This document shows positions 2,036 through 58,540 of a DNA stretch of 64,000 nt, one piece after another. The stretch comes from an uncultured Rhodospirillaceae bacterium. Its GTDB lineage: Bacteria > Pseudomonadota > Alphaproteobacteria > MPNO01 > UBA830. The notes under the pieces are model-generated. The model was not told the origin of the DNA and did no database searches. It was given only the letters and a program-made list of their open reading frames with translations. The translations under genes and the position numbers were made by a program. The stretch spans positions 191,471 to 255,470 of the forward strand of contig CAXBCP010000001.1 of the NCBI GenBank assembly GCA_963974055.1. The letters are read 5' to 3'. Positions within the stretch are counted from its first letter, which is position 1. Every line of letters begins with the position of its first letter.

Positions 2036-2104
2036 CCCCGCAACACTACATATTGGTGGCGCCATTCGACTCGCCGCCCCGCCGCTTTCATCTACAGGCT
2101 CTTC

Positions 2105-2731: not shown

Positions 2732-2866
2732 AGCATATTCCGCTTAAGCGGAATCGCACCGGCCCGGTGCCGCCAAAACAGGAAATACTCTCAGCAACCG
2801 GACCGTATAGAAAAACGGGCGCAGAACCCGGCCTGCGCCCGTTGCTTTTCATAGGTTTTCAGCGCG

Positions 2867-6999: not shown

Positions 7000-7047
7000 G
7001 GCGGTCAGGCCAGGGACGCCGAACGACAATATCCGTTCATATCGGCA

Positions 7048-8262: not shown

Positions 8263-8563
8263 TTTTGTTTCCTCCAGGGCTGCGCGCTTGCGGTTTTTTG
8301 CTTTCCGGCGCAGCGTTGAACACACAGAATAGGGCGCTCCGACCGGAGACCCCGTCGAAGACAACTTACTCAGAAGCGTTTTTTTGAAATTCGAATTCGG
8401 TTGCGTCGTCAATTTCATCGTCCCTTCGCCGGCATTATCCGGTGCAGGTTCCAGGAGTCGTTCGCTTGCCGAACCTCTCAGCCGCATATGGCGGCTCCCC
8501 CCGATGGAAGACCGGATTATGCGCGGGCGGATTTGAGATGACAAGTCAGGAATAAAATTTTCG

Positions 8564-10270
8564 ATGAACGATACGGTTTACGACTACGTCATTGTCGGCG
8601 GCGGCTCCGCCGGGTGCGTGCTGGCCGGACGGTTGAGCGCGCGGTCGTCCAACCGTGTTCTGCTGGTCGAGGCCGGCACCGACTACGCACCCGACAATCT
8701 GCCGGACCAGTTGCAGGACGGCTTTGCCGGTGTTGCCTATAACGACCTGCGGTTCATCTGGGACAAGCTGCGCGTCACGGTTCCGCCGCGCCCGGGCAAT
8801 GCGCCGGATGCCCGCCCTGACAAGCTTTACCAGCAGGGCCGGGTCATGGGCGGCGGCTCGTCGATCAACGGCATGATGGCCAATAGGGGCAGCCCGCAGG
8901 ATTACGACGAATGGGTGGAGCGCGGGGCCGCTGGCTGGTCGTGGGAGGACGTTCTGCCGTTTTTCCTGAAACTGGAATCCGACCGCGATTTCAGCGGCCC
9001 GTATCACGGCATGGACGGCCCCATCGGGATCCGACGCCTCTTTCCCGATGTCTGGCCCGGCTATACGAAGGCCATCATGACGGCAGCGGACGATGCCGGT
9101 TTCGCTTATCTCGAAGACATGAATGCGGATTTCGCCGACGGCTATTTTCCCATTTCCATCTCCAATATCGACGACAAGCGGGTATCGGCGAACGTCGCCT
9201 ACCTGACGATGGACGTCCGCGCCCGGCCCAATTTCGAAATCCTCGACCGGGCGGAGGTACAGCAGCTCGTCTTCGACGGCAGGAAGATTGCAGGCCTTCG
9301 CGTGAAACGGCCCGACGGTATTCGCACGATCCGCGCGAAAGAAGTCATCGTGTCGGGCGGTGCGACCCATTCGCCGGCGATCCTGATGCGGTCCGGCATC
9401 GGGCCGGCTGCGCAACTGTCCCATCTCGGTATCGATATCGTCGCCGATCGGCCCGGGGTCGGCCAGAACCTGATGGAACATCCGGGTGTTTCGATGGCGT
9501 CCTATATGAAACCCGCCGCCCGCCTGCCGCCGGGAATGCGCCGCCAGATGATCGCGGCGATGCGGTTTTCGTCCGGCGTCGAAGGTTGCGGCGACAATGA
9601 TATGTTTATCGTGCCGACGAACAAATCCGTCTGGCACGCGCTCGGCGACCGCATCGGCGCAGTAATGGTGTGGATCAACAAGTCCTATTCGACCGGCGAA
9701 GTGACTCTGAATTCGGCGGACCCGGGGGTTGAACCCCGTGTCGATTTCAACATGTGCTCGGACGAGCGCGACCTGGTGCGCCTGGTCAGGGCGACACGTC
9801 TGCTCGCAAAGCTGCATGAAAACCCCGCCGTGACCGCCGCCGTGCACGATGTCTTTCCCGCCGCCTATTCCGAGCGGGTGCGCAAGGTCGGGGAATTCAA
9901 CAATTCGAACCGGATCAAGACCTGGATTGCGGCGCAATTGATGGATCTCAGCGGGCCGGTGCGGCGCGGTTTCATCAACAACGTGATTCTCGAAGGGCCG
10001 ACACTTGCCGAACTATTGCAGGACGACGACACCATCGCCGACTGGATCCGGAAAACCGTCACCGGCCACTGGCATGCATCCTGCACCTGCCGCATGGGGG
10101 CGGCGGACGACCCGGGCGCGGTGACCGATCCTTCGGCGCAAGTTTACGGGGTCGACGGCCTGCGGGTCTGCGACACCTCGATTATGCCCTGCGTGCCGCG
10201 CGCCAATACCAATATCCCGACCATCATGATGGCGGAGAAGGTAGCGGACACGATCCTGGCGGGGAATTAA
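8564..10270 (+). CDS. GMC family oxidoreductase (choline dehydrogenase-like flavoprotein)
   Basis: The N-terminal FAD motif is DYVIVGGGSAGCVLAGRLS. GMC signatures follow: GGGSSINGMMANRG and a C-terminal TCRMG...VDGLRVCDTSIMP. Confidence 0.85.
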   Translation: MNDTVYDYVIVGGGSAGCVLAGRLSARSSNRVLLVEAGTDYAPDNLPDQLQDGFAGVAYNDLRFIWDKLRVTVPPRPGNAPDARPDKLYQQGRVMGGGSSINGMMANRGSPQDYDEWVERGAAGWSWEDVLPFFLKLESDRDFSGPYHGMDGPIGIRRLFPDVWPGYTKAIMTAADDAGFAYLEDMNADFADGYFPISISNIDDKRVSANVAYLTMDVRARPNFEILDRAEVQQLVFDGRKIAGLRVKRPDGIRTIRAKEVIVSGGATHSPAILMRSGIGPAAQLSHLGIDIVADRPGVGQNLMEHPGVSMASYMKPAARLPPGMRRQMIAAMRFSSGVEGCGDNDMFIVPTNKSVWHALGDRIGAVMVWINKSYSTGEVTLNSADPGVEPRVDFNMCSDERDLVRLVRATRLLAKLHENPAVTAAVHDVFPAAYSERVRKVGEFNNSNRIKTWIAAQLMDLSGPVRRGFINNVILEGPTLAELLQDDDTIADWIRKTVTGHWHASCTCRMGAADDPGAVTDPSAQVYGVDGLRVCDTSIMPCVPRANTNIPTIMMAEKVADTILAGN

Positions 10271-16115: not shown

Positions 16116-18005
16116 CTATTCCGCGGGTGCGACGTCGATCTGTTTGACGCTCCGGGTCACAAGATAGACGATTACCAGGCCTGCCGCTGCAACCACAAGC
16201 GTCAGCGGCGATTCATGGCCGAGCCAGATTGTCGACGACCCGACCGTGAGACAGGCGGCGTACATGCCGATCGACGACAGCCAGCCGGCGAAATTGCCCG
16301 ACCCGAGCACTGTCACCGTATGGGCGAGCAGCATGCCCGCCGACATGCAGGTCGCGATAACGTAGACGATGGCGACTGTCGTTCCTTCCAGCAGCAGGGC
16401 GGGGTTAAAGGCCCACAGATAGGGCAGCAGATACGCGGTTGCGGCAAGCTGAACGCCGACGAAGCCGGTTTTCCACATATCGGCGCCGGCCATCTCGGCG
16501 GCGACCATCGACGCGATGGCGACGGGCGGCGTGAGCATGCTTATCAGGCCGAAGTAGAACAGGAAGAGATGCGCGCCGATGGGCACCAGCCCCATTTTGA
16601 TCAGCGCGGGTCCGATCACCGACACGAGCACGATGTATACCGTCGCCGTCGGCATGCCCATGCCGAGAACGATGCAGATGAGCGACGTCATCAGCAGCAT
16701 CACCATGATGCCGTATTCCTCGCCGAGATGCGCCAGGATCAGGCTGAGCTGGAACGCGAGACCGGTGGAATTCATCACGCCGAGAATGATCCCGGCGGCG
16801 CCGCCGATCAGGATTAGCGGAATGAGAATTTCGCCGCTGCCGAGGAAGAAATTTCTCCAGTGTTCCATCGTGGGCAGACGCCGGTCGCGCACCGTCATCA
16901 GCACGACCATGCTGGCGGCGGAATACAATGCCGCAACGCCCGGCGGATAGCCGAGCCAGAACAGGAAATACATCAGGATGATGATCGGGATAATGAATAT
17001 CCAGCCGACCTTGAGCACGTCGATTATGATCGGCAACTCGGCCTTGGGCAGTCCGCGCAGCCGGAACCGGCGGGCGACCGCATCGACCTGCATGAAAAGG
17101 ACGAGGAAATAGAGGGCCGCCGGCACGGCCGCCGCGATAACGACATCCTGATAGGGAATTTCAAGGAACTCGGCGATGATGAATGCCGTCGCCCCCATTA
17201 CCGGCGGCGCAATCTGGCCGCCATTGGACGCGACCGCTTCGATCGCCCCGGCATATTCCGGTTTGAACCCGGTTTTTTTCATAAGCGGGATCGTCACAAT
17301 ACCGGTCGACATGATGTTGCCGACTGTCGAGCCCGAGATCGTGCCGAACGCGCTGGATGCGATGACCGCAACCTTGGCCGGTCCGCCGCGGCGATGGCCC
17401 ATCCAGCCCATGGCAAGATCGGTGAGGAAGGCGGTACCGCCGCTGACTTCCATCAGCTTGCCGAACAGGATGAAAGCGAGAACCAGGTTGACGATGACCT
17501 GCAGGACGAGGCCGGGAACGCCGTTATTATCCTGGTAGAAATAGGTGATTGTCTTGGTCGGCGGGAAAATCGACGCCTCAAGGGCGCCGGGGAGAATATC
17601 GCCGAAAAACGCATAGAGGATCAGAACCCAGACAAGGCTGGAGATAATTCGTCCGGCCGACTTGCGCAGGCCCTCCATCATTAACACCAGCGCGATAACA
17701 CCGGGTACCCATTTGTCGGGGGTGCGCAAATGCGCGGTGACGATCCAGTCCTCGAAATTGTAGGCCATCCAGAACCAGGACAGGAATGCGGCGAGGGCCA
17801 GAAGACATTCCAGCAATCCCGGTTTTTCGAAATAGGGGTAACGGAGAAGCGCGCCCGCACACGCGATTCCGAGAATAACGCCGACGACCTGCTGGAAGGT
17901 CAGGGCGATGCCAAAATAGTCGGTGAGTGCCAGAATCCAGGCAATCCCGAGTATCGGCATTGAGGCGAGGCAGACACGCAGGAGTATCCCGCTAAATCTT
18001 TCCAT
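16116..18005 (-). CDS. TRAP transporter fused permease subunit (TAXI-type, DctQ/DctM fusion)
   Basis: 629 aa with more than 16 TM. A small N-terminal DctQ-like region is fused to a DctM-like 12-TM domain. It lies immediately downstream of a TAXI solute-binding protein. Confidence 0.8.
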   Translation of the reverse strand: MERFSGILLRVCLASMPILGIAWILALTDYFGIALTFQQVVGVILGIACAGALLRYPYFEKPGLLECLLALAAFLSWFWMAYNFEDWIVTAHLRTPDKWVPGVIALVLMMEGLRKSAGRIISSLVWVLILYAFFGDILPGALEASIFPPTKTITYFYQDNNGVPGLVLQVIVNLVLAFILFGKLMEVSGGTAFLTDLAMGWMGHRRGGPAKVAVIASSAFGTISGSTVGNIMSTGIVTIPLMKKTGFKPEYAGAIEAVASNGGQIAPPVMGATAFIIAEFLEIPYQDVVIAAAVPAALYFLVLFMQVDAVARRFRLRGLPKAELPIIIDVLKVGWIFIIPIIILMYFLFWLGYPPGVAALYSAASMVVLMTVRDRRLPTMEHWRNFFLGSGEILIPLILIGGAAGIILGVMNSTGLAFQLSLILAHLGEEYGIMVMLLMTSLICIVLGMGMPTATVYIVLVSVIGPALIKMGLVPIGAHLFLFYFGLISMLTPPVAIASMVAAEMAGADMWKTGFVGVQLAATAYLLPYLWAFNPALLLEGTTVAIVYVIATCMSAGMLLAHTVTVLGSGNFAGWLSSIGMYAACLTVGSSTIWLGHESPLTLVVAAAGLVIVYLVTRSVKQIDVAPAE

Positions 18006-18047
18006 CGGTTCTACTCCTGCGTGTCAATCGTAATGCTGCGACCTTGC

Positions 18048-19058
18048 CTATTTCGTCAGCACCATGTCGTTCTTCATGTGGGCGTCGGTATAGATGCCGA
18101 CTTCCTTGTAGTATTTCGCCGCACCCGGATGGTAGGGGATCGGGTTGTTGGACGGCGCAATTGCGGATTTTTGCTGGCCGCGGAGCGGGGGATAATCCTT
18201 CTGCATCGCTCCCCAGTTCTCGTAAACCGCCTTGGCCATGGCGTAAGCATCCTCGTCGGATACCTGTGTGCCGGCATTCAGGTAGGAATCGAACGCGGGG
18301 ACCCTGATGTCGCTTTTGACGAAGGGTTTGCGCTTGCTGTTCTTTTCCGCGACCGTATAGAGGCCGGCCATTCCCTTACCCATAAACTCGTCGGTACCCA
18401 TGGGGCCGACCGGGATGATGCGCAGACCGCCGGGGACGGTCGCGTGCGCTTTGCGGAGTTGCGGCATGCCTGTGGCGATGGGCGCTGCGTCCACCCGGTC
18501 CTGAACGACCATGCCGATACTGGCGACGACGCCGCCGGATTCGACCGGGGTGACGTCGTTTTCGGTCAGTCCTGCGGATGCGAGAATGGTCCGGTTGGCC
18601 TGGGCCAGCGAGACGTTGGTCTTGAATTTGACGACGACGCGTTTGCCCTTCAGGTCCGCGAGCGTTTTTATGCCCGAGCTTTCCTTGACCATGTAGGCAT
18701 AGGGCAGAACCCAGATGCGCGCAATCGAGCGGACTTTCTTGGTCGCTGCCTTGTAGGGCGGCGTCGCGCTCCATGCCATACCGGAATCGAGCGACGAATT
18801 GATGCCGAGCGTGATCTCGCCGGCATCCATCAGCGGCAGGTAGACCGACGAGCCGGCATGCGGCTGTGCATTGGACCGCACGCCCAGTTTTTCCTGGAAC
18901 AGTTTGGCGAAACCGCTGCCCAGCAGAAAGTATGTCGAACCCTGCGGGTTGGTGCCGATCGTGATGCGTTTCAGTTTGGCGTCGGCGGTTCCGGCAGTCA
19001 CCGAGAATGCACCAACCGCTGCTGCAAACACAGCGGCTTTCACTACGTGATTTGTCAT
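18048..19058 (-). CDS. TAXI family TRAP transporter solute-binding subunit
   Basis: MTNHVVKAAVFAAAVGAFSVTAGTADA is a signal peptide. The TAXI/Imp-like motifs ITIGTNPQGSTYFLLGSGFAKL are present. Start taken at ATG 19058, 6 codons inside the ORF-track start. Confidence 0.8.
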   Translation of the reverse strand: MTNHVVKAAVFAAAVGAFSVTAGTADAKLKRITIGTNPQGSTYFLLGSGFAKLFQEKLGVRSNAQPHAGSSVYLPLMDAGEITLGINSSLDSGMAWSATPPYKAATKKVRSIARIWVLPYAYMVKESSGIKTLADLKGKRVVVKFKTNVSLAQANRTILASAGLTENDVTPVESGGVVASIGMVVQDRVDAAPIATGMPQLRKAHATVPGGLRIIPVGPMGTDEFMGKGMAGLYTVAEKNSKRKPFVKSDIRVPAFDSYLNAGTQVSDEDAYAMAKAVYENWGAMQKDYPPLRGQQKSAIAPSNNPIPYHPGAAKYYKEVGIYTDAHMKNDMVLTK

Positions 19059-19219
19059 GATTTGCTCCCTAAGCAATATCGTTGTTACAAGCGCATTTTT
19101 TTTTAATACGCGCCTGAATGAACCCTATCAGACGATTTGGTCGCCGTTAAGCGGCAAAATTTCGAATCAACGACGGGTGGGAGCGGCGTGTGCCGCGCCG
19201 AACGGGTTCGGTGGAAGCG

Positions 19220-20716
19220 CTACGGAACGGCCGTGATGCAGGGCTGTTTATCGTCGAGGAGAAACGGCCCTACCTGTGCGTGTTCGGTGGCGTAGTCGCG
19301 ACCGCAGAAGTCTCGTGCTGCATTGGAGATCGGGGTGCCGGAAGACCGGAGCGCCTTTTCATCCGTAACGGCGAGGTTCCCTTCGACGGGTTCGGCGAAA
19401 ACATCGGATGAAACTTTACGGTTCAGCGCGGCGTCAATATTCGAAACGATGTTGCCGCGTTCCGTATAGTTTCCATCGGTGCGCGCGAGGATGCGCCCGT
19501 CGATCACATTGTTCAGGATCGTGGCCGTGGTTTCGGGATACCGGACATCGATGCCGCGCGTGCCCGTCAGGAGATTGTTGTGGATCAGGGTGTCGGCACT
19601 TTTGTTGAGATATACGCCGACATCGTTCGGGCAATTCATCACGATATTGTTCCGCATAATGCCCCGGATGTGCTCGTCCCGGCATTTTCCGTCGCGGCAG
19701 GACCCTCGATCGGTGCCGCCGCCGCCGAATGAGAATCCGATCCGCGTTCCGCCGCGCTGGCGCCATTCGCAGCGCACCAGGTTGCGTTCGAATATATTAT
19801 CCTCGCCGGCGCCCTTGAAAAATGCGCCGTAGCTGATGCGGTCGCCCTGCGCCTTGGCGAAATCGGCAATGAAATTAGCCTCCACGACCCAGTTGCTGGC
19901 GGCGACGATGTCCAGCATTGTGACCGGGTTCGATGTTTGGCGGGGCCGATCGTTGATAAAAACGTTGTGCGCCACGGTGCCGCCGTCGGGAAACCGGCCG
20001 CTGGCGCCATTTACCTTCAACGACGCGTTGAAATTGGAAATCCAGTTGTTTCGAATGACTGTCGAGTGGGCGTTTCCGACGACATGAAAGGCGTGTTCAC
20101 ACCAGGAATCGCTGGAACATACCCCGTCTATAATCAGGTTCTCGAATATCCAGTTCGCGCCCCGAACGTGAAAGCCTTCCTGCAGATCGAATCGCAGCGT
20201 AACTGTCCCGAAAGCCTTCGCGCGGACGCTGATTGGCGCAGTATCTGTGCCGTTTGCAGCGACATCGATGGATTTTCCCGAAAATGTATACGTGCCCGGG
20301 GCGATGGTGATAACGTCTCCGGGTTCGGCGTTTCCGATTGCCGTAACAACGTCCGTCGCCGAGTTTACGACCGTGCGATTGTGCATGGGACTGTCGTTGG
20401 CGGGATTGGGCCCGGTTTGCGGTCCGATCGCGAAAACCGGCCAGTCCGCCGGACGTGCAGCGGCGGCCCTGCCGGAGACGGGTGCAAAAACATTCCGCGG
20501 ATCCGTTCTCCAGAACAGGTATTCGGCAATATCGAAACCGGGCTTCAGCGATGGATATTTGTTCTTTTGCCAAATGAATTCGGGGTGAAGCAACCGGGCC
20601 CATGAAACATGGAATGCTTCCTGAAATATGTACTGCGTGTAAAGCGCCCCTCCTGAAATTCCCAAAACGAATATCAGGAATACCACCCCTGCCAACCGAC
20701 CAATTTTTCGCCGCAT
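19220..20716 (-). CDS. membrane-anchored right-handed parallel beta-helix (pectin-lyase-fold) protein
   Basis: 498 aa. The N-terminus MRRKIGRLAGVVFLIFVLGISGGALY is a signal anchor. Repeated beta-helix coils follow (NNWISNF, HNVFIND, NNIVMNC, HNNLLTG, NNVIDG). AAGGAAAAG SD precedes ATG 20716. Confidence 0.7.
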   Translation of the reverse strand: MRRKIGRLAGVVFLIFVLGISGGALYTQYIFQEAFHVSWARLLHPEFIWQKNKYPSLKPGFDIAEYLFWRTDPRNVFAPVSGRAAAARPADWPVFAIGPQTGPNPANDSPMHNRTVVNSATDVVTAIGNAEPGDVITIAPGTYTFSGKSIDVAANGTDTAPISVRAKAFGTVTLRFDLQEGFHVRGANWIFENLIIDGVCSSDSWCEHAFHVVGNAHSTVIRNNWISNFNASLKVNGASGRFPDGGTVAHNVFINDRPRQTSNPVTMLDIVAASNWVVEANFIADFAKAQGDRISYGAFFKGAGEDNIFERNLVRCEWRQRGGTRIGFSFGGGGTDRGSCRDGKCRDEHIRGIMRNNIVMNCPNDVGVYLNKSADTLIHNNLLTGTRGIDVRYPETTATILNNVIDGRILARTDGNYTERGNIVSNIDAALNRKVSSDVFAEPVEGNLAVTDEKALRSSGTPISNAARDFCGRDYATEHAQVGPFLLDDKQPCITAVP

Positions 20717-20796
20717 CTTTTCCTTACGCACTCTTTCTGTCGACGGGATCAAAGAGCCTTTCTTTTAAAAAAACGCAGTCCACGCCGACGCTACCA

Positions 20797-20928
20797 TTTA
20801 ACCACCGGAAGGTTCTTCAGAAACCGGATTGTGCATGACCCCTTTGCTATCGTCACAGTTGATACCATACCCGGCCAGCGCCGACAGAATATTAATTGCC
20901 AGCGCCTGATCCGCTTCGGTTATCGGGG
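20797..20928 (-). repeat. orphan copy of the marR 3' end (left direct repeat of the low-GC island)
   Basis: This stretch is about 80% identical at the nucleotide level to 25419-25554. On the minus strand it encodes ...AINILSALAGYGINCDDSKGVMHNPVSEEPSGG*. The intact MarR ends ...AINILSALAGYEINPHDNKSVSCNPASEEISRD*. An in-frame TAA upstream truncates this copy. Confidence 0.75.
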
Positions 20929-21244
20929 ATTAATTCCGTGATATTGCATGATCGCCATGAGCCGAGACTCTTGGAGTGACTACCGAACTCCTCTTGGCTA
21001 CGCTCAATCATGTCGAGGGGACCCAGTATGGTGTGATTTGTATGGGATTATTTTCGCGAGACACTGTAATAATGCACAATAAACTGTCTAATGATTGATT
21101 GTGAATCGTCCTATCTGGACGACAGGGGCAGGGTCTTCGCAGGCTTGGTATCGCCCGCATGTGGACGTCATTTGTACCTCAGACGGATTGCCGCACTATT
21201 GTAAGTCACCATCGGAAGGCGGCTTCTGCAGGACAAAGAAAATT

Positions 21245-22870
21245 ATGAAAATTGATTACAACCTGAACGGCGAGGGTGCAAAATCCGTATTTTTTGTAAT
21301 TTGTGCTTTGGTCTTTTTCGCGTTCTTTGAGTTCTACTACAAAATTAATGCGGCTTACCCGTCGGCTCTTCCCCTCGGTTATATCTTGACGGTATTTGCA
21401 GGCATTGTTTTCTCGCGAGTGAAGTATGAAGATTTTTCACCTGCGTTTAAAATCTGCTTCCGGGGGCTTGCTGTCCTTATCGGGCTGTATGCCGCGTTCG
21501 TGTTTCCCGATTATCCGATCGTTGTTGATAAATATGGCGGTACCGAAGGCGCCATCGTGCTTGGCGGCTGGTTTTTGGGCGTCTTATGTTCCCTGCTAAC
21601 GCTATGGCGCCCTTCCTTTCTTCTCGCGAGCGGGTTCTATCTCTGGTGGAGCAAACAGATCGCTGGAACTGTTACCGGATTCCCGTATCACACCCTGCTC
21701 GACATTTTACCTGCAATTGAAATCTCCGCCTTTATGTCGACAGCCTTGTTTTTGCTCGTGCTGATGGGACAGCCTTGGGTTCTCTTGGGCAACAACCGGT
21801 TCGTTTCAGATATTCGCTCGTTCTTTACACAGCGCCGGCGGTATCTCGGCGACTTGATAGTATTCGTGGCAATTTCCATGCAGCTGGCTAATTATTTTAC
21901 GTCGGGCTTAGGTAAAGCCAGCTTGAATGGCGGCGTATTGTCGTGGTCGCTTGAAAATAACCTGGCCGATATTTTCGACGTAGCTGTCATAAACGGACAA
22001 CTTTTCTGGCAGGATTATCCATTCGCCGTTTCGACGTTTTCCGCGATCTTCGACTATCTGAAACACCCGATGTCGATTGGAGTGCTTGTATTTCAGCTTT
22101 TTGCAATCATCGCATTCCGCTCCAGAAATCTTCTGGTGTTTCTATTTCTCGTATTCGATCTGATGCATTTCGGCATTTTTGTTTCGGTCGGTGCGAATTT
22201 CGGACCCTGGTTCATCCTCAACCTGGTAATCTTGGCTGCCGCTGCGAGGCTTGACGATCGTTTCTTTTCGGTAACGGCGGCGAGCGCATCGGCTGCGTTG
22301 GTCATTATATTCGCCTTTGCGTCGCCGCCATTTTGGTCGGCTTGGTTGCGCTGGTACGATACGCCAGCCATCAACACCACGTATTTTGTTGCCGAAGACG
22401 TAACCGGAACGCAAACACGTGTTCCGGTCACCTATTTCGGATTTTACTCCTATCCGATTGCACATATGAGCTTCGGACTTCCGCCTGGGCAGTATCTGCC
22501 GGTGGGAACGAATGGCGGGGTGCTTGACTACAAAATCATGGTCAAGGCGCGGACTTGCGCCTTCACGGACGCCGATATGGTTTCTTCGCAGCACGCCGAG
22601 CGATGGTCGAACAGCGATATTCCCGAATTCATCAGGCATTATCACCGCCAGATGGTAACAAAGTACGGTCCGGGGCAGTCCCGTAATTTCAATATATACC
22701 CCCATCATTTCTGGACGCGTCCCAAGATTTCTAACGCTTTTCGCAGACTTGATAAGCGCAAGATCGTCGCCTATGTAATGAAAACAGATTCCCTCTGCCT
22801 GCGACGTAGTCCTACTGGCGTTGAATCCCGCCTCGTAGCCCACAATGAGATTCGTATAGATGTACGATGA
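21245..22870 (+). CDS. large polytopic integral membrane protein of unknown function (island cargo)
   Basis: Starts at ATG 21245 (MKIDYNLNG...). At least 10 predicted TM helices, then a soluble ~150 aa C-terminal domain. Low GC relative to the flanks. No motif recognised with confidence. Its ORF overlaps the DCC gene by 11 nt. Confidence 0.5.
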   Translation: MKIDYNLNGEGAKSVFFVICALVFFAFFEFYYKINAAYPSALPLGYILTVFAGIVFSRVKYEDFSPAFKICFRGLAVLIGLYAAFVFPDYPIVVDKYGGTEGAIVLGGWFLGVLCSLLTLWRPSFLLASGFYLWWSKQIAGTVTGFPYHTLLDILPAIEISAFMSTALFLLVLMGQPWVLLGNNRFVSDIRSFFTQRRRYLGDLIVFVAISMQLANYFTSGLGKASLNGGVLSWSLENNLADIFDVAVINGQLFWQDYPFAVSTFSAIFDYLKHPMSIGVLVFQLFAIIAFRSRNLLVFLFLVFDLMHFGIFVSVGANFGPWFILNLVILAAAARLDDRFFSVTAASASAALVIIFAFASPPFWSAWLRWYDTPAINTTYFVAEDVTGTQTRVPVTYFGFYSYPIAHMSFGLPPGQYLPVGTNGGVLDYKIMVKARTCAFTDADMVSSQHAERWSNSDIPEFIRHYHRQMVTKYGPGQSRNFNIYPHHFWTRPKISNAFRRLDKRKIVAYVMKTDSLCLRRSPTGVESRLVAHNEIRIDVR

Positions 22871-23282
22871 CGATCAGACCCCGCATAAAGGTATTTTCGT
22901 CGTTTACGATGGTGAATGTCCATTCTGCTCGCGATACGTTGCGATGCTCCGGCTCCGTGAAGCGGCTGGGTATGTTGAACTCATCGATGCTCGGTCGTCT
23001 CACCCGATGGTCGATGAAGTAGTGAGCTACGGCTTCGACCTCGACGATGGCATGGTTGCGAAAATTGGAGACGCCTATTACGCGGGTGCGGATTGCGTCA
23101 ACGTTCTAAGTCTTCTGAGCACCCGAACGAACGGGTTCAATCGCCTGAACTACTGGATGTTCCGGTCCCGGGCATTTTCGCGATTGCTTTACCCTGTTCT
23201 GCGTTTCGGCCGGAACCTCGTTCTGCGTTTGCTCGGCAGATCAAAGATTGGGAAGACATCTAAACCTAATAAGGCCGCCTGA
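22860..23282 (+). CDS. DCC1-like thiol-disulfide oxidoreductase family protein (DUF393)
   Basis: 140 aa. The N-terminal VVYDGECPFCSRYV motif is the defining CxxC signature of the DUF393/DCC family. Confidence 0.7.
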   Translation: MYDDDQTPHKGIFVVYDGECPFCSRYVAMLRLREAAGYVELIDARSSHPMVDEVVSYGFDLDDGMVAKIGDAYYAGADCVNVLSLLSTRTNGFNRLNYWMFRSRAFSRLLYPVLRFGRNLVLRLLGRSKIGKTSKPNKAA

Positions 23283-23378
23283 TCGGCGCGTATGCCCTCA
23301 CGGTCGGGGGAACTCGTTCGCATGAATTAATCATATATTTTGCGTCACAATTATCCGCCATCCGTTAAGAAGACTGCT

Positions 23379-25394
23379 ATGAAAAAATTCCTGGTACCGG
23401 GGTATAATGGATACCGTCCTGACGTAGATGGTCTCCGGGCCGTGGCGGTCCTCTCTGTAATTCTTTTTCATATCGACGAAACTCTCGTTCCAGGCGGATT
23501 TGTGGGAGTAGACATTTTTTTTGTCATCTCCGGATTCCTGATTTCGCGCAACATCATACAAGATATTCAGCAAGACCGGTTCACAATCCTGGACTTTTAC
23601 CGGCGGCGGATTAAGCGCATCGTGCCGCCGATGCTGCTTGTGGTCGCTGCGACCGTTGTCATTGCCCAGATTATTTTGTTGCCGTTGGATGCCGAATGGG
23701 TCGCGGATTCCGCCTTATGGTCACTCGCGTCACTGGCAAACGTCTATTTCTGGCAATTTCAGGATCTCAGTTACTTCGCGGCCGACAGTAAGGAACTTCC
23801 ACTTCTTCATTTGTGGTCGCTTGGTGTCGAAGAACAGTTTTATTTCATATGGCCGCTTCTGTTGCTCATGATCGGTGCGCTCCGTCGTCCGCGGCTTCTG
23901 ATCGTATGCATCGCCGCCATTATAGTTGGTTCGTTTGTCCTGGGTGAATTGATCTTCGAGCGATCTCCCATGTTTGCCTATTACATGCTGCCGTCGCGGG
24001 CCGGAGAATTGCTGTTTGGCGCTCTGGTGGCAGTTGCGATAATCAAGAATGTCGACCGATATATTTCAAAAATTGCTGCGTTCACGATAGCCTGGTCCGG
24101 TGTGGCACTTCTGATATGGAGTTTGTTCGCGCTATCGGAAATGGACCGGTTTCCTGGGTTTAATGCGATTCCGCCCACTCTTGGGACCGCCCTTATTATT
24201 TTTGCCGGGCATTGCCAGCGCGGCATTCTTTTCCAAGCCTTGTCGGTGCGGCCTGTAGTCTGGGTTGGGCTAGTGTCCTACTCGGCGTACCTTTGGCATT
24301 GGCCGCTTCTCGCTTTCGTTAGATATGGATTTGGCGAAGTCACGCCAATTTTTGGCTTGCTTGCCTTTCTTGCGACTTTTTTGCTCGCATGGATCACCTA
24401 TCGATATGTTGAACAGCCTGCGCGGCGCATAAACGCGGCGTTTGGACGGGTTCTTACTACTCAATATTTGATACCCGCCGGCGCTCTCGGCATGGTGTGT
24501 ATGATGGCAATGTACATTGACGGATACGGCTTCCGCAATCTGATCGGGGACTACAGGCAACGACTTGAAGACAGCAAGCGACTGACGCCTTCCACGTTTA
24601 CGTTCGATTTCGTCTGCCAAAAACAACGGATTGGCGCAAAAGATCTTCTGAACGGTAGTTGCGTCGTTGGGGCGCCATCGTCCGACCCGGCAAAGTTTAT
24701 AATGTGGGGCGATTCTAATTCCAGTCATTATGTCGGCATGGTGCGCCAGTTCGCCGAGCGGGGTGGGTTTAAAGTCAGGAACGTTGCTGTCGGCGCCTGT
24801 CCGCCGATCGATGACGACCCGGAACCATTCGTAAAGTCTAAACGCCTTGCGGACTGCAGGACGTCGCTTCGCGTTATTCGGTCGGTGATCGACAAATATC
24901 CGGCGGTCATAATGGCCGCGTCCTATCCGAGTTATCGCAGTAACCCGGAGTTTCTTGAATCGTTTATGAAAACTGCGGCTCGTCTGGCACGATCGGGTAA
25001 ACCAGTGATTGTTCTCGGAAAGGTTCCGTTACTTCACCGCTTCGATCATCTGTGCCAGCAAAAATCTATCAGTTTTCCGATGCTTGTTTGTGCAAACACC
25101 AGCAATGCAATCGATCCCGACGTCGCAAGGATTAATTCCAAGCTTAAGGAATTTGCCGGCCGAACGGACGTTGTCGAGTATTTCGATGCAAATGATTTGA
25201 TTTGTCCCCGCGGTATATGTTCTGCATACGCTTCAGACGGTAAACAAATTTATCACGACGGTGACCATATCACGATGAGCGCTTCTCAGGACGTCGGGCG
25301 CAAAGTGTTTGAAACCCAAGGTCTTCCAGCTCCGTTTGGCCAAGCACTGGATTATCTGTCACGTGCGACACGCCCCGCCGTCGAGGGGGGCTGA
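23379..25394 (+). CDS. acyltransferase family 3 O-acyltransferase with C-terminal SGNH/GDSL hydrolase-like domain (OatA-like)
   Basis: 671 aa. An N-terminal ~350 aa 10-TM acyltransferase_3 domain (RPDVDGLRAVAVLSVILFH...FFVISGFLISR) is followed by a periplasmic domain with a MWGDSNSSHYV SGNH-type block. Confidence 0.8.
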   Translation: MKKFLVPGYNGYRPDVDGLRAVAVLSVILFHIDETLVPGGFVGVDIFFVISGFLISRNIIQDIQQDRFTILDFYRRRIKRIVPPMLLVVAATVVIAQIILLPLDAEWVADSALWSLASLANVYFWQFQDLSYFAADSKELPLLHLWSLGVEEQFYFIWPLLLLMIGALRRPRLLIVCIAAIIVGSFVLGELIFERSPMFAYYMLPSRAGELLFGALVAVAIIKNVDRYISKIAAFTIAWSGVALLIWSLFALSEMDRFPGFNAIPPTLGTALIIFAGHCQRGILFQALSVRPVVWVGLVSYSAYLWHWPLLAFVRYGFGEVTPIFGLLAFLATFLLAWITYRYVEQPARRINAAFGRVLTTQYLIPAGALGMVCMMAMYIDGYGFRNLIGDYRQRLEDSKRLTPSTFTFDFVCQKQRIGAKDLLNGSCVVGAPSSDPAKFIMWGDSNSSHYVGMVRQFAERGGFKVRNVAVGACPPIDDDPEPFVKSKRLADCRTSLRVIRSVIDKYPAVIMAASYPSYRSNPEFLESFMKTAARLARSGKPVIVLGKVPLLHRFDHLCQQKSISFPMLVCANTSNAIDPDVARINSKLKEFAGRTDVVEYFDANDLICPRGICSAYASDGKQIYHDGDHITMSASQDVGRKVFETQGLPAPFGQALDYLSRATRPAVEGG

Positions 25395-25418
25395 GCGGTA
25401 ACTCCTCGGACTGGCGTT

Positions 25419-25554
25419 ACCAATTAATCGCGGGAAATTTCTTCAGAAGCCGGATTGCACGAGACACTTTTGTTATCGTGAGGGTTGATTTCATATCCGG
25501 CCAGTGCCGACAGAATATTAATTGCTGTGGCGCGGTCCGCTTCCGGTACCGGGG
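25419..25554 (-). repeat. right direct repeat of the island (native 3' end of marR)
   Basis: Partner of 20797-20928; see that entry. Continuous with the intact MarR CDS. Confidence 0.75.
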
Positions 25555-25912
25555 CCAGTATCCGGCGTTGGGCCCGATCGGCGGCCTCGAACGCTGATTC
25601 GAGTGCCAGGCGTCCCTCCTCGGTCAGGAACAGGGCGTTGGCGCGCTGGTCCGCCGGGGTTCGCGACCTGGATATCATCCCCCGGTCGACCATGCGGCGA
25701 AGAACTTCAGTCAGAGTGCTGCGGTCTATCCCGCTTGCTTCCACCAGGGCGGTCTGGCTCAGTCCCGGATTCTGAAAGACGCTGATCAGGACCGCAAATT
25801 GTCGTGGGTTCGGACCGTTTTCACCGACTTCTTCACAGAACAGATCGACCGCCCGCTGCTGGCACCGTCGTATCAAGTGGCCGGCGACCGAATCGAGCTC
25901 AAAGTTCTTCAT
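25424..25912 (-). CDS. MarR family transcriptional regulator
   Basis: 162 aa from MKNFELDSVAGHLIRRCQQRA. The winged-HTH core is FAVLISVFQNPGLSQTALVEASGIDRSTLTEVLRRM. Divergent from the LLM monooxygenase gene. The ORF-track 276-aa extension is rejected. Confidence 0.8.
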   Translation of the reverse strand: MKNFELDSVAGHLIRRCQQRAVDLFCEEVGENGPNPRQFAVLISVFQNPGLSQTALVEASGIDRSTLTEVLRRMVDRGMISRSRTPADQRANALFLTEEGRLALESAFEAADRAQRRILAPVPEADRATAINILSALAGYEINPHDNKSVSCNPASEEISRD

Positions 25913-26151
25913 GGATTGTTCGAGCGTATCGGCCAAGGCGGGACCACCTGATTTCTGACGGCTGCAAATTCTGTTTCGAGAGTCTATGGGAATGCATTTC
26001 ATCTGTACACGGATTAGTCGTCGGTGTAGGGTCGCGCCCCTCTGGAACAACGATTCCGGGCGGACGTTTTCGAGCGTGGGACATAACCTGGAGCCCGCCG
26101 GCATAGCCCGAAAGCTGCGCACATACGGGCAATAATTACGGGGAGAGCGAC

Positions 26152-27207
26152 ATGGAATTCGGACTGCAATACTTTCCCTGTGTCGGTCCCGACCAGAAAT
26201 CGGGTCAGCAATATTTTGATGAGTGTCTGCGGCTGACCGAATACGCCGATACATACGGTTATTCGCATGTCCGCACGGTCGAACACTATTTTCACCCTTA
26301 TGGCGGATACAGCCCGAACCCCATTGTCTTCCTGTCGGCGTTGTCCCAGCGCACGCAGAAGGCCCGGATCGTGACAGGCGCGATTCTGCCGGTCTTTAAC
26401 AATCCGCTGAAACTTGCCGGTGAGATCGGCATGCTCGACGCGATCTGCGGCGGCCGTGCCGAGATCGGTTTCGCCCGCGCGTTCCTGCCCCATGAATACG
26501 AGCGCTTCAATATAGACCTCGATGAGAGCGTTGCGCGTTTCGATGAAGGCATGGAGCAGATCGACCTGCTTCTGACCGGCGAAAATGTCTCTCACGACGG
26601 AGAATTTCACAGCTTCAGGAACGTGACGTCACTGCCCCGGCCGACCCAGCAGCCGCGTCCGAAGTTCTGGACCGCCGCATTCACCACCCCGGAATCGTTT
26701 GAAAAGGCGGGCCGGGTCGGCAACTACATTATGGCGATTCCCATTGGCGGCTCGCAGATGGCAGAACTGATCGGCATATACCGCGAAGCATGGAAATCGG
26801 CAGGTCATGGAGGCGAGGGGCGAATTATGCTCGCTTTTCAGATGTATTGTCACGAGGACGGCGCCGAGGCTGCGCGGATCGCCCGCGGGCCGGTCAATCG
26901 CTATCTCAAGTCCCTTGTAGATGCGGCGAAGGACTGGGTCGACGGCGCCACGTCCGACAACTACAAAGGCTATGGCAAGATGATCGAGGCGCTCGATCGC
27001 GAGACGTTCGAAAGCCAGGTAGAAAAAGGTGCCGCCTGGGTCGGAACGCCCGAGGAACTGGTCGAACGGATTCGGACTTACGATCAGGAAATCGGCGGCT
27101 TTGACGATGCCTCCCTGCAGGTCAATTTTAATGATCTGTCCTATGATGAGGCCGAACGTTCCGTGAAGCTGTTCGGTGAAAAGGTAATGCCGTCCTTTGC
27201 GGACTGA
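26152..27207 (+). CDS. LLM class (luciferase-like) flavin-dependent monooxygenase
   Basis: 351 aa with a TIM-barrel LLM pattern (MEFGLQYFP..., LDAICGGRAEIGFARAF, FWTAAFTTPESFEKAG). Confidence 0.8.
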   Translation: MEFGLQYFPCVGPDQKSGQQYFDECLRLTEYADTYGYSHVRTVEHYFHPYGGYSPNPIVFLSALSQRTQKARIVTGAILPVFNNPLKLAGEIGMLDAICGGRAEIGFARAFLPHEYERFNIDLDESVARFDEGMEQIDLLLTGENVSHDGEFHSFRNVTSLPRPTQQPRPKFWTAAFTTPESFEKAGRVGNYIMAIPIGGSQMAELIGIYREAWKSAGHGGEGRIMLAFQMYCHEDGAEAARIARGPVNRYLKSLVDAAKDWVDGATSDNYKGYGKMIEALDRETFESQVEKGAAWVGTPEELVERIRTYDQEIGGFDDASLQVNFNDLSYDEAERSVKLFGEKVMPSFAD

Positions 27208-27290: not shown

Positions 27291-28721
27291 GTGAAGGTAA
27301 CGTTTGTCGGACACGCTTCGATCCTTGTAGAAGCTGGCGGTCTGAACATTTTGTCGGATCCTTGGTGGGCCGGTTCCTGCTTCGGTACTCAATGGTGGCC
27401 TTACCCCAAACCCGCTGTAGATGCCGTCGATCCGGAGCGGCTCGACTATATTTATATTTCGCACGGACATGCCGATCATTTGCATAACGGGACGCTCAGC
27501 CGGTTGCCGAAGACGGCGGTCTGCCTTGTCGCGCAGGAACTGAACCTGTCTGAACCGCTAAAGGGGCTCGGTTTCGAGGTAATCGAGGTCGCACCGAAAA
27601 CCGACTATGCGCTGAACGAAAAGGTGACGATTGAAATTACGCCGACGGTAAGCGGGGACAGCTTTTCGGTTATCCGTGATGATCGGCAGATATGCATGAA
27701 CATGAACGACGCGCTTCATGCGGCGCCGCGGGATATACAGACGCAAATGATCGGTTACCTGAACGCCAAGTACGGGCAGGCGGATTATATGTTCTGCGGC
27801 TTCGGCATCGCTTCGCATTTTCCGATATGTATTGAGGTCCCCGGGCGCGATCGCGATCGCACGGCGGCGGAGCGCCAGAAACATTTTAACCGGGAATGGG
27901 CGTACATCGTTCACGGGCTTGGCCCCAAATACGCCTTTCCGTTTGCTGCAGATGTCATCTTTCTCGATGAAAATATTCGCTGGGCGAATTCCGCAGTTCA
28001 TAACGGCGAACGCCCCGTCGACGTGCTGACCGGCCCGTTTGCGACGCCGCAAACCAAAGCAATCGACATATATCCGGGCTTTTCGATAGACGGGGACAAT
28101 ATAGTTGTCGACGCTCGTCATCGGCCGGTCGTCGCGGCGGAGATCGACGCCGCATTCGAGTCCGAAACCAGGATGGCCAACCGGTCGACCGCCGTTAGCG
28201 CAGACGGGGTCGAAGATCTGGTTGTCCGTCTCCGTGAGAACCTTGAGACGTGCCGGCAGTATCTGTGCGAGATTGACAACAACTACCGGTTTCTCATCGA
28301 GTTCATCGGCAATGATGCCGGCATTGAAATTTGTAAAACAGGCAACCGGCTCGATGCTTTCAGTATCAAAATTTCGGATATCGACAAGACTGACTATGCC
28401 GTCGTATTTCTGACGAAATATTCATATCTGCGGCGGTCGTTGTCCGATGAGTTCGGTCACGAAGTTCTTTCGGTGGGCTCGGGAGGTGTATTCAGATACC
28501 GCAGCCGCGCCGAAGCGGATGCCAACCTTCATGGCGAATTAATGCTTGTTCTGCGGACCCATACCGCAGCGCCGCCCAGTCGTTTTGGGGATCAGTCAAA
28601 ACTTAGGTATCAGATGAAAACCCTGGTCAAGAAGGCGCTGCGGGTTGCACTTCGCCGCCCGGCAGCGGTCGATCTATACGATAACCGGCACTGGATCAGA
28701 TATGAAGATCATAATGGCTAA
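27291..28721 (+). CDS. MBL-fold metallo-hydrolase with extended C-terminal domain
   Basis: GTG start preceded by AGGGAAG. N-terminal beta-lactamase-fold motifs: HASILVEAGG, YIYISHGHADH. A ~250 aa C-terminal extension of unknown function follows. Confidence 0.65.
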   Translation: MKVTFVGHASILVEAGGLNILSDPWWAGSCFGTQWWPYPKPAVDAVDPERLDYIYISHGHADHLHNGTLSRLPKTAVCLVAQELNLSEPLKGLGFEVIEVAPKTDYALNEKVTIEITPTVSGDSFSVIRDDRQICMNMNDALHAAPRDIQTQMIGYLNAKYGQADYMFCGFGIASHFPICIEVPGRDRDRTAAERQKHFNREWAYIVHGLGPKYAFPFAADVIFLDENIRWANSAVHNGERPVDVLTGPFATPQTKAIDIYPGFSIDGDNIVVDARHRPVVAAEIDAAFESETRMANRSTAVSADGVEDLVVRLRENLETCRQYLCEIDNNYRFLIEFIGNDAGIEICKTGNRLDAFSIKISDIDKTDYAVVFLTKYSYLRRSLSDEFGHEVLSVGSGGVFRYRSRAEADANLHGELMLVLRTHTAAPPSRFGDQSKLRYQMKTLVKKALRVALRRPAAVDLYDNRHWIRYEDHNG

Positions 28722-28736
28722 ACCGGTCGTGCCTAT

Positions 28737-29324
28737 TTACTCCCCGCCGGTTTGATATTCGACCAGATAACTGGCGTAATACTTTTGAGGGCCGGGAGCC
28801 TGCCATCTGAAGCCCTTTGCTGTCGGTAGGTAATAAACCGGCATCCATTTGAAGTTATTGGTCGAGCATTTATATTTCGTGCGGTACCATTTCTTGGCCC
28901 AGACTTTAAACGCATTTCTTGGGTGCACTTCACCGTTCACCCATACGAGTTTACGAACACTGCAAAAGAATCGAAGGCCAATCCACACTTCTTCCTTGGC
29001 CTCGAAATTTGCTTTCAGAAAACTGTGGGTTTCAATGTCCTTGACTACTGCCAGGCGCCCCCGGACCCCCTTAAATATTCGCGTGCGCGCATATTTATTA
29101 GCTGTTGACCAATTCGGCGGCATTGGCAGATCGACCCGCAGTTCAAAGTAGCTCTTGGTGTGGGGATTATAAATCGGCTTAACTGGAACGGCCGAAGAAC
29201 CGGTCCTGTGATACGCCTCGCCGGTTTCGGCGGCGAGGGCCATCCTAGCTGTCGATGAGAGAAGCAAATATGCGACTGCTACGATGACGATCTTGAGTAG
29301 GGGCGCTCGAATAGGACTGAACAT
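28737..29324 (-). CDS. secreted C-type lectin-like domain protein (low-GC orphan gene)
   Basis: 195 aa from MFSPIRAPLLKIVIVAVAYLLLSSTARMALAAE, a signal peptide. CTLD-like blocks: WSTANKY...GRLAVVKDIETHSFL and EVWIGLRFF...WVNGE. The gene is conspicuously AT-rich compared with its neighbours. Confidence 0.5.
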   Translation of the reverse strand: MFSPIRAPLLKIVIVAVAYLLLSSTARMALAAETGEAYHRTGSSAVPVKPIYNPHTKSYFELRVDLPMPPNWSTANKYARTRIFKGVRGRLAVVKDIETHSFLKANFEAKEEVWIGLRFFCSVRKLVWVNGEVHPRNAFKVWAKKWYRTKYKCSTNNFKWMPVYYLPTAKGFRWQAPGPQKYYASYLVEYQTGGE

Positions 29325-29442
29325 CAGTTCTTCTGCGGTTAGCACGATGTCTCTAAGACAGAGTATATAACGCCACCCGAAATATGTTAAGAACGGAGTA
29401 GGAGTGTATATTGCAGTTTGATTTTGTCGGGACGCCCAATTT

Positions 29443-30423
29443 ATGAAAACGCTTGTCACCGGAGCCGCGGGATTTATCGGTTACCATACCGCAACCCGTT
29501 TGCTCGACCGGGGCGACGAGGTCGTTGGTATCGATATTGTGAACGACTATTACAGCGTGGCGCTTAAAAACGCCCGGCTGGAACGGCTGAAACAGAGAGA
29601 CGGGTTTACGTTCCACAAGCTCGATCTTTCCGACCGGCAGGCCTTCGACGAAACTCGTTCGGCGATCCGTGGCGTCACCCGTGCTGTGCATCTCGCGGCG
29701 CAGGCGGGCGTCCGGCATTCGATCGAGCGGCCGTTCGACTATGTCGATGCGAACCTGGTCGCCCATATGACCGTTCTGGAATTATGCCGTCATCAGCCGG
29801 ATTTCGAACATCTGGTTTATGCCAGTTCAAGTTCGGTCTATGGCGGGAACACCAAGCTTCCATTTGCCGTCGAAGACCGCGTCGATGCGCCGGTATCGCT
29901 CTATGCGGCGACCAAGCTGGCCAATGAACATATGAGTTACAGTTATAGCCACCTTTACGGTCTTGCGCAGACGGGCCTGCGGTTTTTCACCGTCTACGGA
30001 CCTTGGGGGCGGCCGGATATGGCGCTGTATATATTCGCGGATGCCATCCTCAAAGGGCGGCCTATCGAGGTTTTCAATCATGGCGACATGAAGCGCGATT
30101 TTACCTATGTCGACGATATTGTGACGGGGGTCGTGGCGGCGCACGACAATCCGCCCTCCGCCGACCCGGGGCCGCCCCACAGGGTCTACAATATCGGAAA
30201 CAACCAATCGGAACCGTTGCTCCGCCTCATCAGCGTGCTCGAAGAGTGCCTCGGGAAAAAAGCGGAAACGATCATGAAGCCGATGCAACTGGGCGATGTG
30301 AAAGAGAGCTTCGCAGATATCGAAGCGATCCGGCGCGATCTCGGATTCGAGCCGACAACCCCGATCGATGTCGGCGTGCCGAAATTCGTCGAATGGCTCA
30401 GATCCTATAACGGGAATTACTGA
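29443..30423 (+). CDS. NAD-dependent epimerase/dehydratase (UDP-glucuronate 4-epimerase-like)
   Basis: Starts MKTLVTGAAGFIGYH, a Rossmann fold. Catalytic YAATK is present. The overall pattern matches the UDP-GlcA/UDP-GalA 4-epimerase (Cap1J/LpsL) subfamily. Confidence 0.85.
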   Translation: MKTLVTGAAGFIGYHTATRLLDRGDEVVGIDIVNDYYSVALKNARLERLKQRDGFTFHKLDLSDRQAFDETRSAIRGVTRAVHLAAQAGVRHSIERPFDYVDANLVAHMTVLELCRHQPDFEHLVYASSSSVYGGNTKLPFAVEDRVDAPVSLYAATKLANEHMSYSYSHLYGLAQTGLRFFTVYGPWGRPDMALYIFADAILKGRPIEVFNHGDMKRDFTYVDDIVTGVVAAHDNPPSADPGPPHRVYNIGNNQSEPLLRLISVLEECLGKKAETIMKPMQLGDVKESFADIEAIRRDLGFEPTTPIDVGVPKFVEWLRSYNGNY

Positions 30424-48233: not shown

Positions 48234-48299
48234 TCGTTTGCTTTTTGGGGCTATTATGCAGCCCGACATTTGGTGAGTTACGTTTGGTCGCGACAAAAA

Positions 48300-51051: not shown

Positions 51052-51066
51052 CTTCGGGGTAGGCGA

Positions 51067-52905: not shown

Positions 52906-52932
52906 CCCGTAGCGGTTCGGGCGGAGGGTCGG

Positions 52933-54429: not shown

Positions 54430-54439
54430 GCGCCAGTAC

Positions 54440-55375: not shown

Positions 55376-55422
55376 GCCGGGCAGGGAACCGGCAGATAAC
55401 CTTGGCAGATCGTTCGAACGCC

Positions 55423-56241: not shown

Positions 56242-56246
56242 AATGC

Positions 56247-57284: not shown

Positions 57285-57288
57285 CCGC

Positions 57289-58527: not shown

Positions 58528-58540
58528 TAGAGTGAGTCAA

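Follow-up and report, generated by a model that had tools for sequence, protein, structure and literature searches.

We describe an insertion at the 3' end of a marR gene in a 64,000-nt stretch of DNA (the window) from an uncultured marine alphaproteobacterium (Rhodospirillaceae); all positions are given in window coordinates. The 3' end of marR is present there twice, once as the end of the intact gene and once as an orphan, and the two copies enclose three cargo genes of foreign base composition. The orphan is the native end of marR, and the end which the gene uses today arrived with the insert. It is very probable that the DNA was inserted with duplication and reconstitution of the marR end. 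For the mechanism we tentatively favour the relic of a small integrative element, which is weighed below against recombination anchored in marR itself.

The duplicated marR end and the insert

The repeat search revealed a direct repeat of 140 nt at 20789-20928 and 25415-25554, with a spacing of 4626 and 77% identity. With the marR 3' end as blastn query against 18 kb of the window, the second copy was retrieved with E=4.4e-27 and no further copy better than E=0.5 was found. This confirms the direct repeats of the marR end described in an earlier note, which was made from the letters of the window. The location given there also holds, but the identity is 77% instead of about 80%, each copy comprises, on the minus strand, the final 43 codons of MarR plus the stop codon instead of about 40 codons, and the repeat begins about 9 nt beyond the stop. 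If the stop codons (20798-20800 and 25424-25426) are counted in, the identity is 76.5% across 132 nt. The in-register identity changes along the repeat: it amounts to 78% in the 9 nt past the stop codon, 76% in the 82 nt between stop and core, 100% in a block of 20 nt (20880-20899, equal to 25506-25525) and 66% in the 29 nt after this block, and drops to background farther on. The 20-nt block, GCAATTAATATTCTGTCGGC on the minus strand, encodes AINILSA and is the candidate crossover site, referred to here as the core. In the codon comparison of the two copies, 16 of 44 codons differ non-synonymously and 4 of 44 synonymously. Nothing else is duplicated, which speaks against a larger segmental duplication, the case in which the earlier note would have been refuted.

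The copy at 25415-25554 (minus strand, attR-like, with the core at 25506-25525) ends the intact target gene marR (25424-25912, minus strand). This gene is divergent from the gene of a luciferase-like monooxygenase (LLM) and encodes a protein of 162 aa with the full MarR Pfam domain, whose C-terminal translation runs to the stop as ...APVPEADRATAINILSALAGYEINPHDNKSVSCNPASEEISRD; the tail carried by the intact MarR of today is ...GYEINPHDNKSVSCNPASEEISRD. The attL-like copy at 20789-20928 (minus strand) consists of 43 codons, the stop codon at 20798-20800 and about 9 nt. Its translation up to the stop is SPITEADQALAINILSALAGYGINCDDSKGVMHNPVSEEPSGG, and an in-frame TAA stands directly before it. 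The translations thus agree with the earlier description of a copy at 25.4 kb that is continuous with an intact marR and of an orphan at 20.8 kb behind an in-frame stop.

Residues 5-137 of MarR are homologous to PcaV (4FHT) and CouR (6C28), and the duplicated part holds the last helix shared with these proteins. In MarR-family structures the conserved last helix is part of the dimer interface. A marR gene truncated at codon 120 loses this helix and would therefore probably be non-functional. The MarR tails of both window copies (20798-20845 and 25424-25471) are about 14 residues longer than those of the closest orthologues. In four related loci (L093, L088, L105 and L106) a TGA follows directly after ...DD(A/T)K and the sequence beyond this TGA is homologous to the window tail; the long tail therefore arose via loss of that stop.

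The composition of the insert is foreign. The GC content is 0.45-0.55 over 20.6-25.4 kb and about 0.50 in the insert, compared to 0.56-0.63 in the flanks, and the GC content at third codon positions (GC3) is 0.55-0.59 in the cargo genes and 0.68-0.79 in the adjacent core genes, which bears out the earlier impression of an AT-rich island. On the left side, an AT-rich and non-coding arm of 316 nt (20929-21244) lies upstream of the first of three genes, all of which are encoded on the plus strand and correspond to the earlier description. Cargo 1 (21245-22870) encodes a polytopic membrane protein of 541 aa which belongs to a rare family without Pfam match and possibly has a GGCX/HTTM-like fold. 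The family has 29 members, and the best non-self relatives are 53-56% identical. Cargo 2 (22860-23282) overlaps cargo 1 by 11 nt and encodes a DCC1-like thiol-disulfide oxidoreductase. This gene pair recurs elsewhere in conserved form, and one of the closest cargo 1 relatives was found, again with a DCC1-like gene, within an unrelated cluster of genes for glycosyltransferases, Wzx and a sulfotransferase. Cargo 3 (23379-25394) encodes an O-acyltransferase of two domains, Acyl_transf_3 (AT3) and SGNH, with an OafA/OafB-like architecture. It is convergent with marR, with 29 nt between the two stop codons.

From its predicted gene products, the cargo would represent a cassette for the modification of a surface polysaccharide. 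It is predicted to lead to an O-acylated variant of the exopolysaccharide (EPS) or O-antigen of the host, a variant that would bear on phage susceptibility. Relatives of the cargo were also found on viral contigs. On the IMG/VR contig L109, a DCC1-like gene and a 34%-identical cargo 1 homologue (pair at 1189-3229) are located directly upstream of the genes for the terminase large subunit, the major head protein and the portal protein (4555-9863); the pair can be phage-borne, in a moron-like position on this contig. Relatives of the AT3(-SGNH) protein are present on 10 IMG/VR contigs, on several of them close to the contig ends. The identity between the cargo and the copies on viral contigs is just 29-41%.

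Empty sites and the native end of marR

In the earlier note an empty site with marR abutting a beta-helix gene had been predicted for related genomes, and such a site exists in four related lineages. The decisive contexts were supplied by the closer MarR relatives, which are 79-86% identical. On the contig P0034, marR is followed by a gap of 121 nt, a gene for a Pel9A-like beta-helix protein of 494 aa and then TAXI. The gap between marR and the beta-helix gene is 83 nt in L105 and 93 nt in L106 and L107, and in L093 and L094 the beta-helix gene after marR is present but split. In the window this native downstream neighbour of marR is the left flank of the insertion: a gene on the minus strand (19220-20716) for a Pel9A/chondroitinase-B-like beta-helix protein of 498 aa. 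It starts 81 nt from the stop codon of the orphan, compared to 83-121 nt in the relatives with an empty site. The orphan thus passes without a break into the native spacer, at the native distance from the beta-helix gene, and is therefore the native marR end.

The alignments with the related loci lead to the same polarity. Window 27191-25484 aligns with L093 5254-6960 and window 20928-16219 with L093 6890-11564, and L093 6890-6960 aligns with both window copies. The colinear overlaps are 53-71 nt long; in L106, in which both window copies are matched as well, the overlap is 53 nt. For L105 and L106, the colinear homology to the orphan side begins at 20899/20900, which is the edge of the core. 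In the multiple alignments the similarity of the orphan extends through the native spacer as far as the first part of the beta-helix gene, and the intact copy loses similarity about 10-19 nt beyond its stop. When the 37 nt that follow the core are compared with L106, the identity is 86% for the orphan and 78% for the intact copy; among the type-1 orthologues it is 86-89% (all counted by hand from the alignment). On the protein level, a GYGINSDD-like motif of the clade consensus is retained by the orphan, but not by the intact copy.

It is hardly credible that the orphan is the remnant of a second, full marR paralogue or of a segmental duplication which had nothing to do with the arrival of the cargo. 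A weak in-register similarity that extends upstream of the orphan for as much as about 70 nt would be in line with such a remnant. Yet the DNA profile of marR, built with the window left out, matches 20928-20845 (nhmmer, E=2.5e-12) and ends at 20928, with an envelope to 20948, and the repeat search gave no other duplicated sequence. Moreover, the orphan is found exactly at the position of the native marR end, at nearly the same distance from the beta-helix gene as in the relatives, and a tandem marR at this place was seen in none of the relatives.

The structure is no assembly artefact, since it is found wholly or partly on at least seven independent contigs of metagenomes from Tara Oceans and other ENA/Logan assemblies, which are 99.66-100% identical to the window. 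Every assembled contig of this population that is long enough to display the site shows the integrated form. Searches for proteins identical to MarR, to the membrane protein, to the beta-helix protein or to TAXI brought up no empty site of the same population, and a 30-mer scan of the JGI metagenomes together with a search for the orphan-tail peptide gave only island-bearing contigs and no empty site. A full-length MarR with the orphan-type tail is not present in the protein collection searched. In contig L087, 8 single-nucleotide polymorphisms (SNPs) in the 4.6 kb of the island and 6 SNPs in 2.7 kb of the flanks were counted, which is the same density. The island is as polymorphic as its flanks, and the SNP density in the population reveals no boundary of a recently imported tract. 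With equal SNP density and presence in all contigs of sufficient length, the island is therefore fixed and not recent relative to the coalescence of the population. A further contig, L081, is without 112 nt of the LLM gene (window 26366-26478), owing either to a deletion in this variant or to a gap in the assembly; the rest of it is 99.4-100% identical to the window.

The equal SNP density and the presence of the island in every sampled population contig of sufficient length would also be expected for an ancestral island, with the empty sites of the relatives explained by deletions between the repeats. Recombination between direct repeats would indeed restore a single marR and an empty site. 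However, at least four independent and precise losses would be needed in lineages that keep the adjacency of marR and beta-helix gene, the GC3 of the cargo is far below that of its neighbours, and cargo 1 has no syntenic relative and none above 56% identity. In addition, an ancestral island would leave the duplication to be explained in the same way. We consider an ancestral island very unlikely.

Mechanism of the insertion

Direct repeats that span the 3' end of a target gene, with the gene rebuilt, are a canonical footprint which fits a single reciprocal crossover. Our tentatively preferred explanation, in which our confidence stays a little below even, is a small integrative element that has decayed or was mobilised in trans, similar to a cis-mobilizable element (CIME); it may possibly have been the conversion-gene end of a prophage. 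The element would have carried a marR-3'-like segment of about 135 nt and would have entered by one reciprocal crossover with the chromosomal marR 3' end, most likely in or adjacent to the 20-nt identical block. We infer that the element passed through a circular form, that the crossover took place at the core and that the recombinase was site-specific. The sequence from the block to the present marR stop (25424-25505) would then be derived from the element and would preserve the last helix and the tail of MarR, and the native end (20798-20879) would have been stranded beside the beta-helix gene. By this event a cassette of the AT3-SGNH O-acyltransferase and the membrane/DCC1-like pair would have been added at the edge of an EPS/O-antigen-type cluster, and the recombinase would have been deleted or would act in trans. 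If excision occurs, marR would join the protein-coding attachment (att) sites and a recombinase acting in trans would be implied.

Several weak signals at the core are suggestive of a chimeric structure of the two copies and favour a crossover at the 20-nt block. The differences between the copies were polarised with four outgroups. On the 5' side of the core the intact copy agrees with the outgroups 6:1, and on the 3' side it is the orphan that agrees with them, at about 12:8; the contrast falls short of significance (Fisher P=0.08). The asymmetry of GC and of strong and weak bases flips across the core (P=0.09), and an identical run of 20 nt at background identity has P ~0.06 in a simulation. 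In the left arm a weak in-register identity to marR was observed, which amounts to 43% in a stretch of 30 nt (P=0.02) and to 38% in one of 72 nt (P=0.011); homology to marR past 20928, where the DNA profile stops, was not confirmed by nhmmer. For transformation, a minimal efficient processing segment of 25-35 bp and a steep recombination barrier beyond 15% divergence have been described (PMC6382021). The repeat of about 135 nt is 23% divergent and has only 20 identical bases, which would be very unfavourable for RecA, and an exchange within the repeat therefore favours a site-specific enzyme. The empty sites of the related lineages, the low GC3 of the cargo, the distance of cargo 1 from its best relatives and the occurrence of relatives of both cargo types on viral contigs speak for an integrative element as well.

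A number of observations weigh against such an element. The signals of chimerism reach just P=0.06-0.09 each and are not independent of each other, and the 29 nt on the 5' side of the core are highly variable among the orthologues (52-72%); the divergence of the orphan in this part is unexceptional. The stop codon of the AT3 gene is 29 nt from that of marR, and on the reconstituted side there is therefore no room for a lost int gene. As stated earlier from the letters alone, the insert is without integrase or transposase: no such Pfam domain was found in the three cargo genes or in the small open reading frames (ORFs) of the 316-nt arm, and none in the window ORFs scanned, which comprise nearly all long and likely coding ones. 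Integrase-like ORFs are absent from the corresponding slots of related loci which were inspected. Among about 30 related marR loci none has an integrase or an orphan, and orphan marR ends are absent from 14 related loci. The incoming MarR tail is found in no other MarR of the protein collection searched, and IMG/VR gave no attP-like match to the core or to a degenerate marR-3' pattern. The clear history of homologous recombination at the locus, described below, also counts against it. Of the site-specific integration with a rebuilt target that the earlier note had proposed, the insertion and the rebuilt target therefore stand, and a site-specific integrase is a candidate.

Searches for other signals of mobility at the site gave little. 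None of the small ORFs in 20929-21244 has a Pfam match. Neither a tRNA nor an Rfam match was found at the site, and an RNA gene as the true target is unsupported. An insertion sequence element or transposon was rejected: there is no transposase, there are no terminal inverted repeats between the ends, and the repeat is 140 nt long and diverged. The search for terminal inverted or arm-type repeats gave just short two-copy matches, possibly due to chance, namely GGGATTAATTCCGTGA at 20926 and 21044 and GCCAGCGCC, which flanks the core in the orphan only. A scan for promoters and terminators remained at or below the shuffled expectation. The GC3 along marR shows no boundary between donor and recipient; all orthologues have a low GC3 at the 3' end.

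The setting of marR has to be considered in this context. The scan of the window ORFs for domains places the gene at the edge of a large region of surface-polysaccharide genes of the EPS/O-antigen type. It contains genes for a Wzy-like protein, glycosyltransferases of the types GT4, GT2 and GT1, a Wzx flippase, a methyltransferase, a UDP-GlcNAc 2-epimerase and beta-helix proteins, as well as Wzz/GNVR, an AAA_31/ParA-type P-loop ATPase, a DUF3473 deacetylase, a FemAB-like protein and two asparagine synthases. The AAA_31/ParA-type ATPase may be the kinase partner of a polysaccharide co-polymerase. The cargo is in keeping with these surroundings. The part at 43520-62112, with Wzz/GNVR, AAA_31/ParA-type and AAA_22 ATPases, the DUF3473 polysaccharide deacetylase, the FemAB-like acetyltransferase, the two asparagine synthases and an AMP-binding enzyme, resembles an EPS locus of the exosortase/PEP-CTERM type. 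Relatives of the locus were collected with LLM as query against the GTDB representative genomes, and the matches are metagenome-assembled genomes of marine Rhodospirillaceae and other alphaproteobacteria. In all of them the order is conserved: the genes for the TRAP permease and the TAXI receptor are separated by a variable stretch from marR and LLM, which are followed by a second variable stretch and an epimerase gene. In the window this second variable slot, between LLM and the epimerase genes, is located at 27291-29459. It holds a gene for a metallo-beta-lactamase (MBL)-fold protein (27291-28721), which is not present in any GTDB relative and was found only in L105 (74% identical), and a C-type-lectin-like gene (28737-29459), which only some relatives have.

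The slot between marR and TAXI has at least six contents in the relatives, all of them related to the cell envelope: nothing, an ORF of 56 aa, a beta-helix gene, a beta-helix gene with GT2, a gene for a VanZ-like protein of about 745 aa, which may be joined by GT2, and a gene for a protein of 821 aa. Each type of slot is accompanied by its own marR 3' end and C-terminus. The sister lineage L096 is 92-95% identical to L093 across LLM and the first 108 or so codons of marR; beyond this position it is similar to L097, with a VanZ-type slot. The marR of L096 (3057-3491, compared with L093 and L097) is a recombinant, with a homologous-recombination breakpoint inside the gene about 60 nt from the core of the window. 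The window itself is a phylogenetically incongruent mosaic: TRAP/TAXI (16116-19076) is 91-97% identical to L002 and L049, whereas marR and LLM (25424-27207) are closest to L088, L093 and L105 (79-85% and 90-93%) and only 69% and 86% identical to L002. SNP clusters in the MBL-fold and epimerase genes, among them some 30 SNPs in roughly 1 kb of the MBL gene in L100/L101, show ongoing recombination tracts in the population.

All these features of the locus speak for a second explanation, a homology-anchored, one-ended recombination in a hypervariable glycan slot in which an integrase was never involved. It accounts for the footprint almost as well as the element does, and we regard it as a possibility to be taken seriously, although we hold it with some doubt. 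A linear donor fragment from a related lineage would have brought the slot content of the donor, that is its marR, the AT3 gene, the DCC1-like gene and the membrane-protein gene. On the right side it would have recombined homologously in the conserved marR or in LLM, and its left end would have been joined illegitimately within the resident marR at about codon 120 (20928/20929). The 5' two-thirds of marR would thus have been replaced and the last 43 resident codons would have survived as the orphan. A variant is the RecA-mediated Campbell insertion of a circularised fragment. Such a recombination accounts for the missing integrase and for the uniqueness of the orphan. Homology-facilitated illegitimate recombination (HFIR) is experimentally documented (PMC6382021 and references therein), and the swapping of replacement flexible islands by homologous recombination in their flanks has been described as well (PMC4033161). 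On the other hand, a wholly native orphan and a wholly foreign intact copy are predicted, but the counts on the 5' side of the core lean in the opposite direction (6:1). No marR-like signal is expected to the left of 20928, but an in-register identity of 38-43% is seen there (P=0.01-0.02). Furthermore, a rare illegitimate joint is required, and no donor lineage with the cargo beside marR was found.

In a third reading of the locus, the marR 3' end of this clade would serve specifically for the docking of surface-glycan cassettes that lack an integrase. Each cassette would bring a marR C-terminus of its own, and a chromosomal recombinase that acts at the AINIL core would exchange or stack the cassettes. 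In this case the contig L103 (3885 nt) would represent a second, recent event at this position. L103 is 99.95% identical to window 20906-17069, and its nt 1-46 diverge from the window starting 7 nt on the 5' side of the core. These 46 nt have no match in the window or in the other loci compared and show a weak resemblance to marR only (P=0.04); they may be a second junction at the core or an artefact of the contig end. A docking site of this kind, which we consider very unlikely, would be a cassette-exchange system for the diversification of glycotypes.

The structure illustrates clearly how, in nature, genes were added to an uncultured marine bacterium at the border of a hypervariable locus for surface polysaccharides. 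Donor and native ends of the target gene are both preserved, and the direction of the event and its junctions are therefore directly readable. It also calls for caution: a duplicated 3' end with a rebuilt target can in principle also be left behind when the flank of a flexible island undergoes homology-anchored recombination, and the lack of an integrase is no sufficient reason to class an island as a decayed mobile element.

Comparison with known systems

Of the features by which site-specific islands are recognised, the window has a repeat with a rebuilt gene, an empty site in relatives and a deviant composition, but an integrase encoded by the element was found neither in the insert nor in the window ORFs scanned. 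Glycotype islands that are exchanged by homologous recombination are known as replacement flexible islands of marine bacteria (PMC4033161). As in these islands, lineage-specific surface-glycan genes occupy the same position, breakpoints are found in a flanking gene, and the host is marine. Replacement islands result from a double crossover without a duplicated flank; here, in contrast, the resident beta-helix gene is still in place and the 3' end of marR is present twice. A duplicated flank together with a kept resident gene therefore requires an extra step, either illegitimate or site-specific. For an illegitimate step, HFIR combines one homologous anchor with one illegitimate joint and needs no enzymes of mobile elements (PMC6382021 and references therein). 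It is known from laboratory transformation, and descriptions of natural footprints in which the end of a gene is stranded are rare.

Serotype-converting prophages place genes for O-antigen modification beside the phage att site, for example oac of Sf6, gtr of SfV and OafB in Salmonella. The island is similar to these in that the gene of an AT3-family O-acyltransferase adjoins an att-like repeat and relatives of the cargo occur on viral contigs. It differs in the lack of any phage gene or phage remnant, in the use of marR instead of a tRNA as target and in the low identity of 29-41% to the viral copies.

In CIMEs, attL and attR are kept and the integrase is lost; they are att-flanked remnants left by integrative and conjugative elements (ICEs) or integrative and mobilizable elements (IMEs) without genes for integration and transfer (PMC5704250). 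The island shares with them the att-like repeats and the restriction to cargo, with no recombinase or transfer genes. CIMEs are identified through related ICEs or IMEs that share their att site and are able to mobilise them. Unlike for CIMEs, no related ICE, IME or phage partner which uses an att site at the marR end was found in about 30 loci, the protein collection and IMG/VR.

The assumption of the earlier note that a protein-coding attachment site is unusual does not hold. The 3' ends of protein genes are common att targets, and many IMEs integrate there (PMC5704250). In Escherichia coli, e14 is integrated in icd and leaves an orphan icd' of 163 bp (PMC6379469, citing Hill et al., 1989), compared to about 135 bp here. 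As with e14 and phage 21 in icd, the target is a protein-coding gene, the 3' end supplied by the element keeps it functional, and the native end is orphaned. In contrast to the window island with its three cargo genes only, e14 encodes an integrase and phage genes and is known to excise, and the two copies in the window, with 77% identity, are far more divergent than those of e14 and icd. Among the known systems, e14 in icd comes nearest to the insertion at marR as a textbook case, and the CIMEs come nearest as a class.

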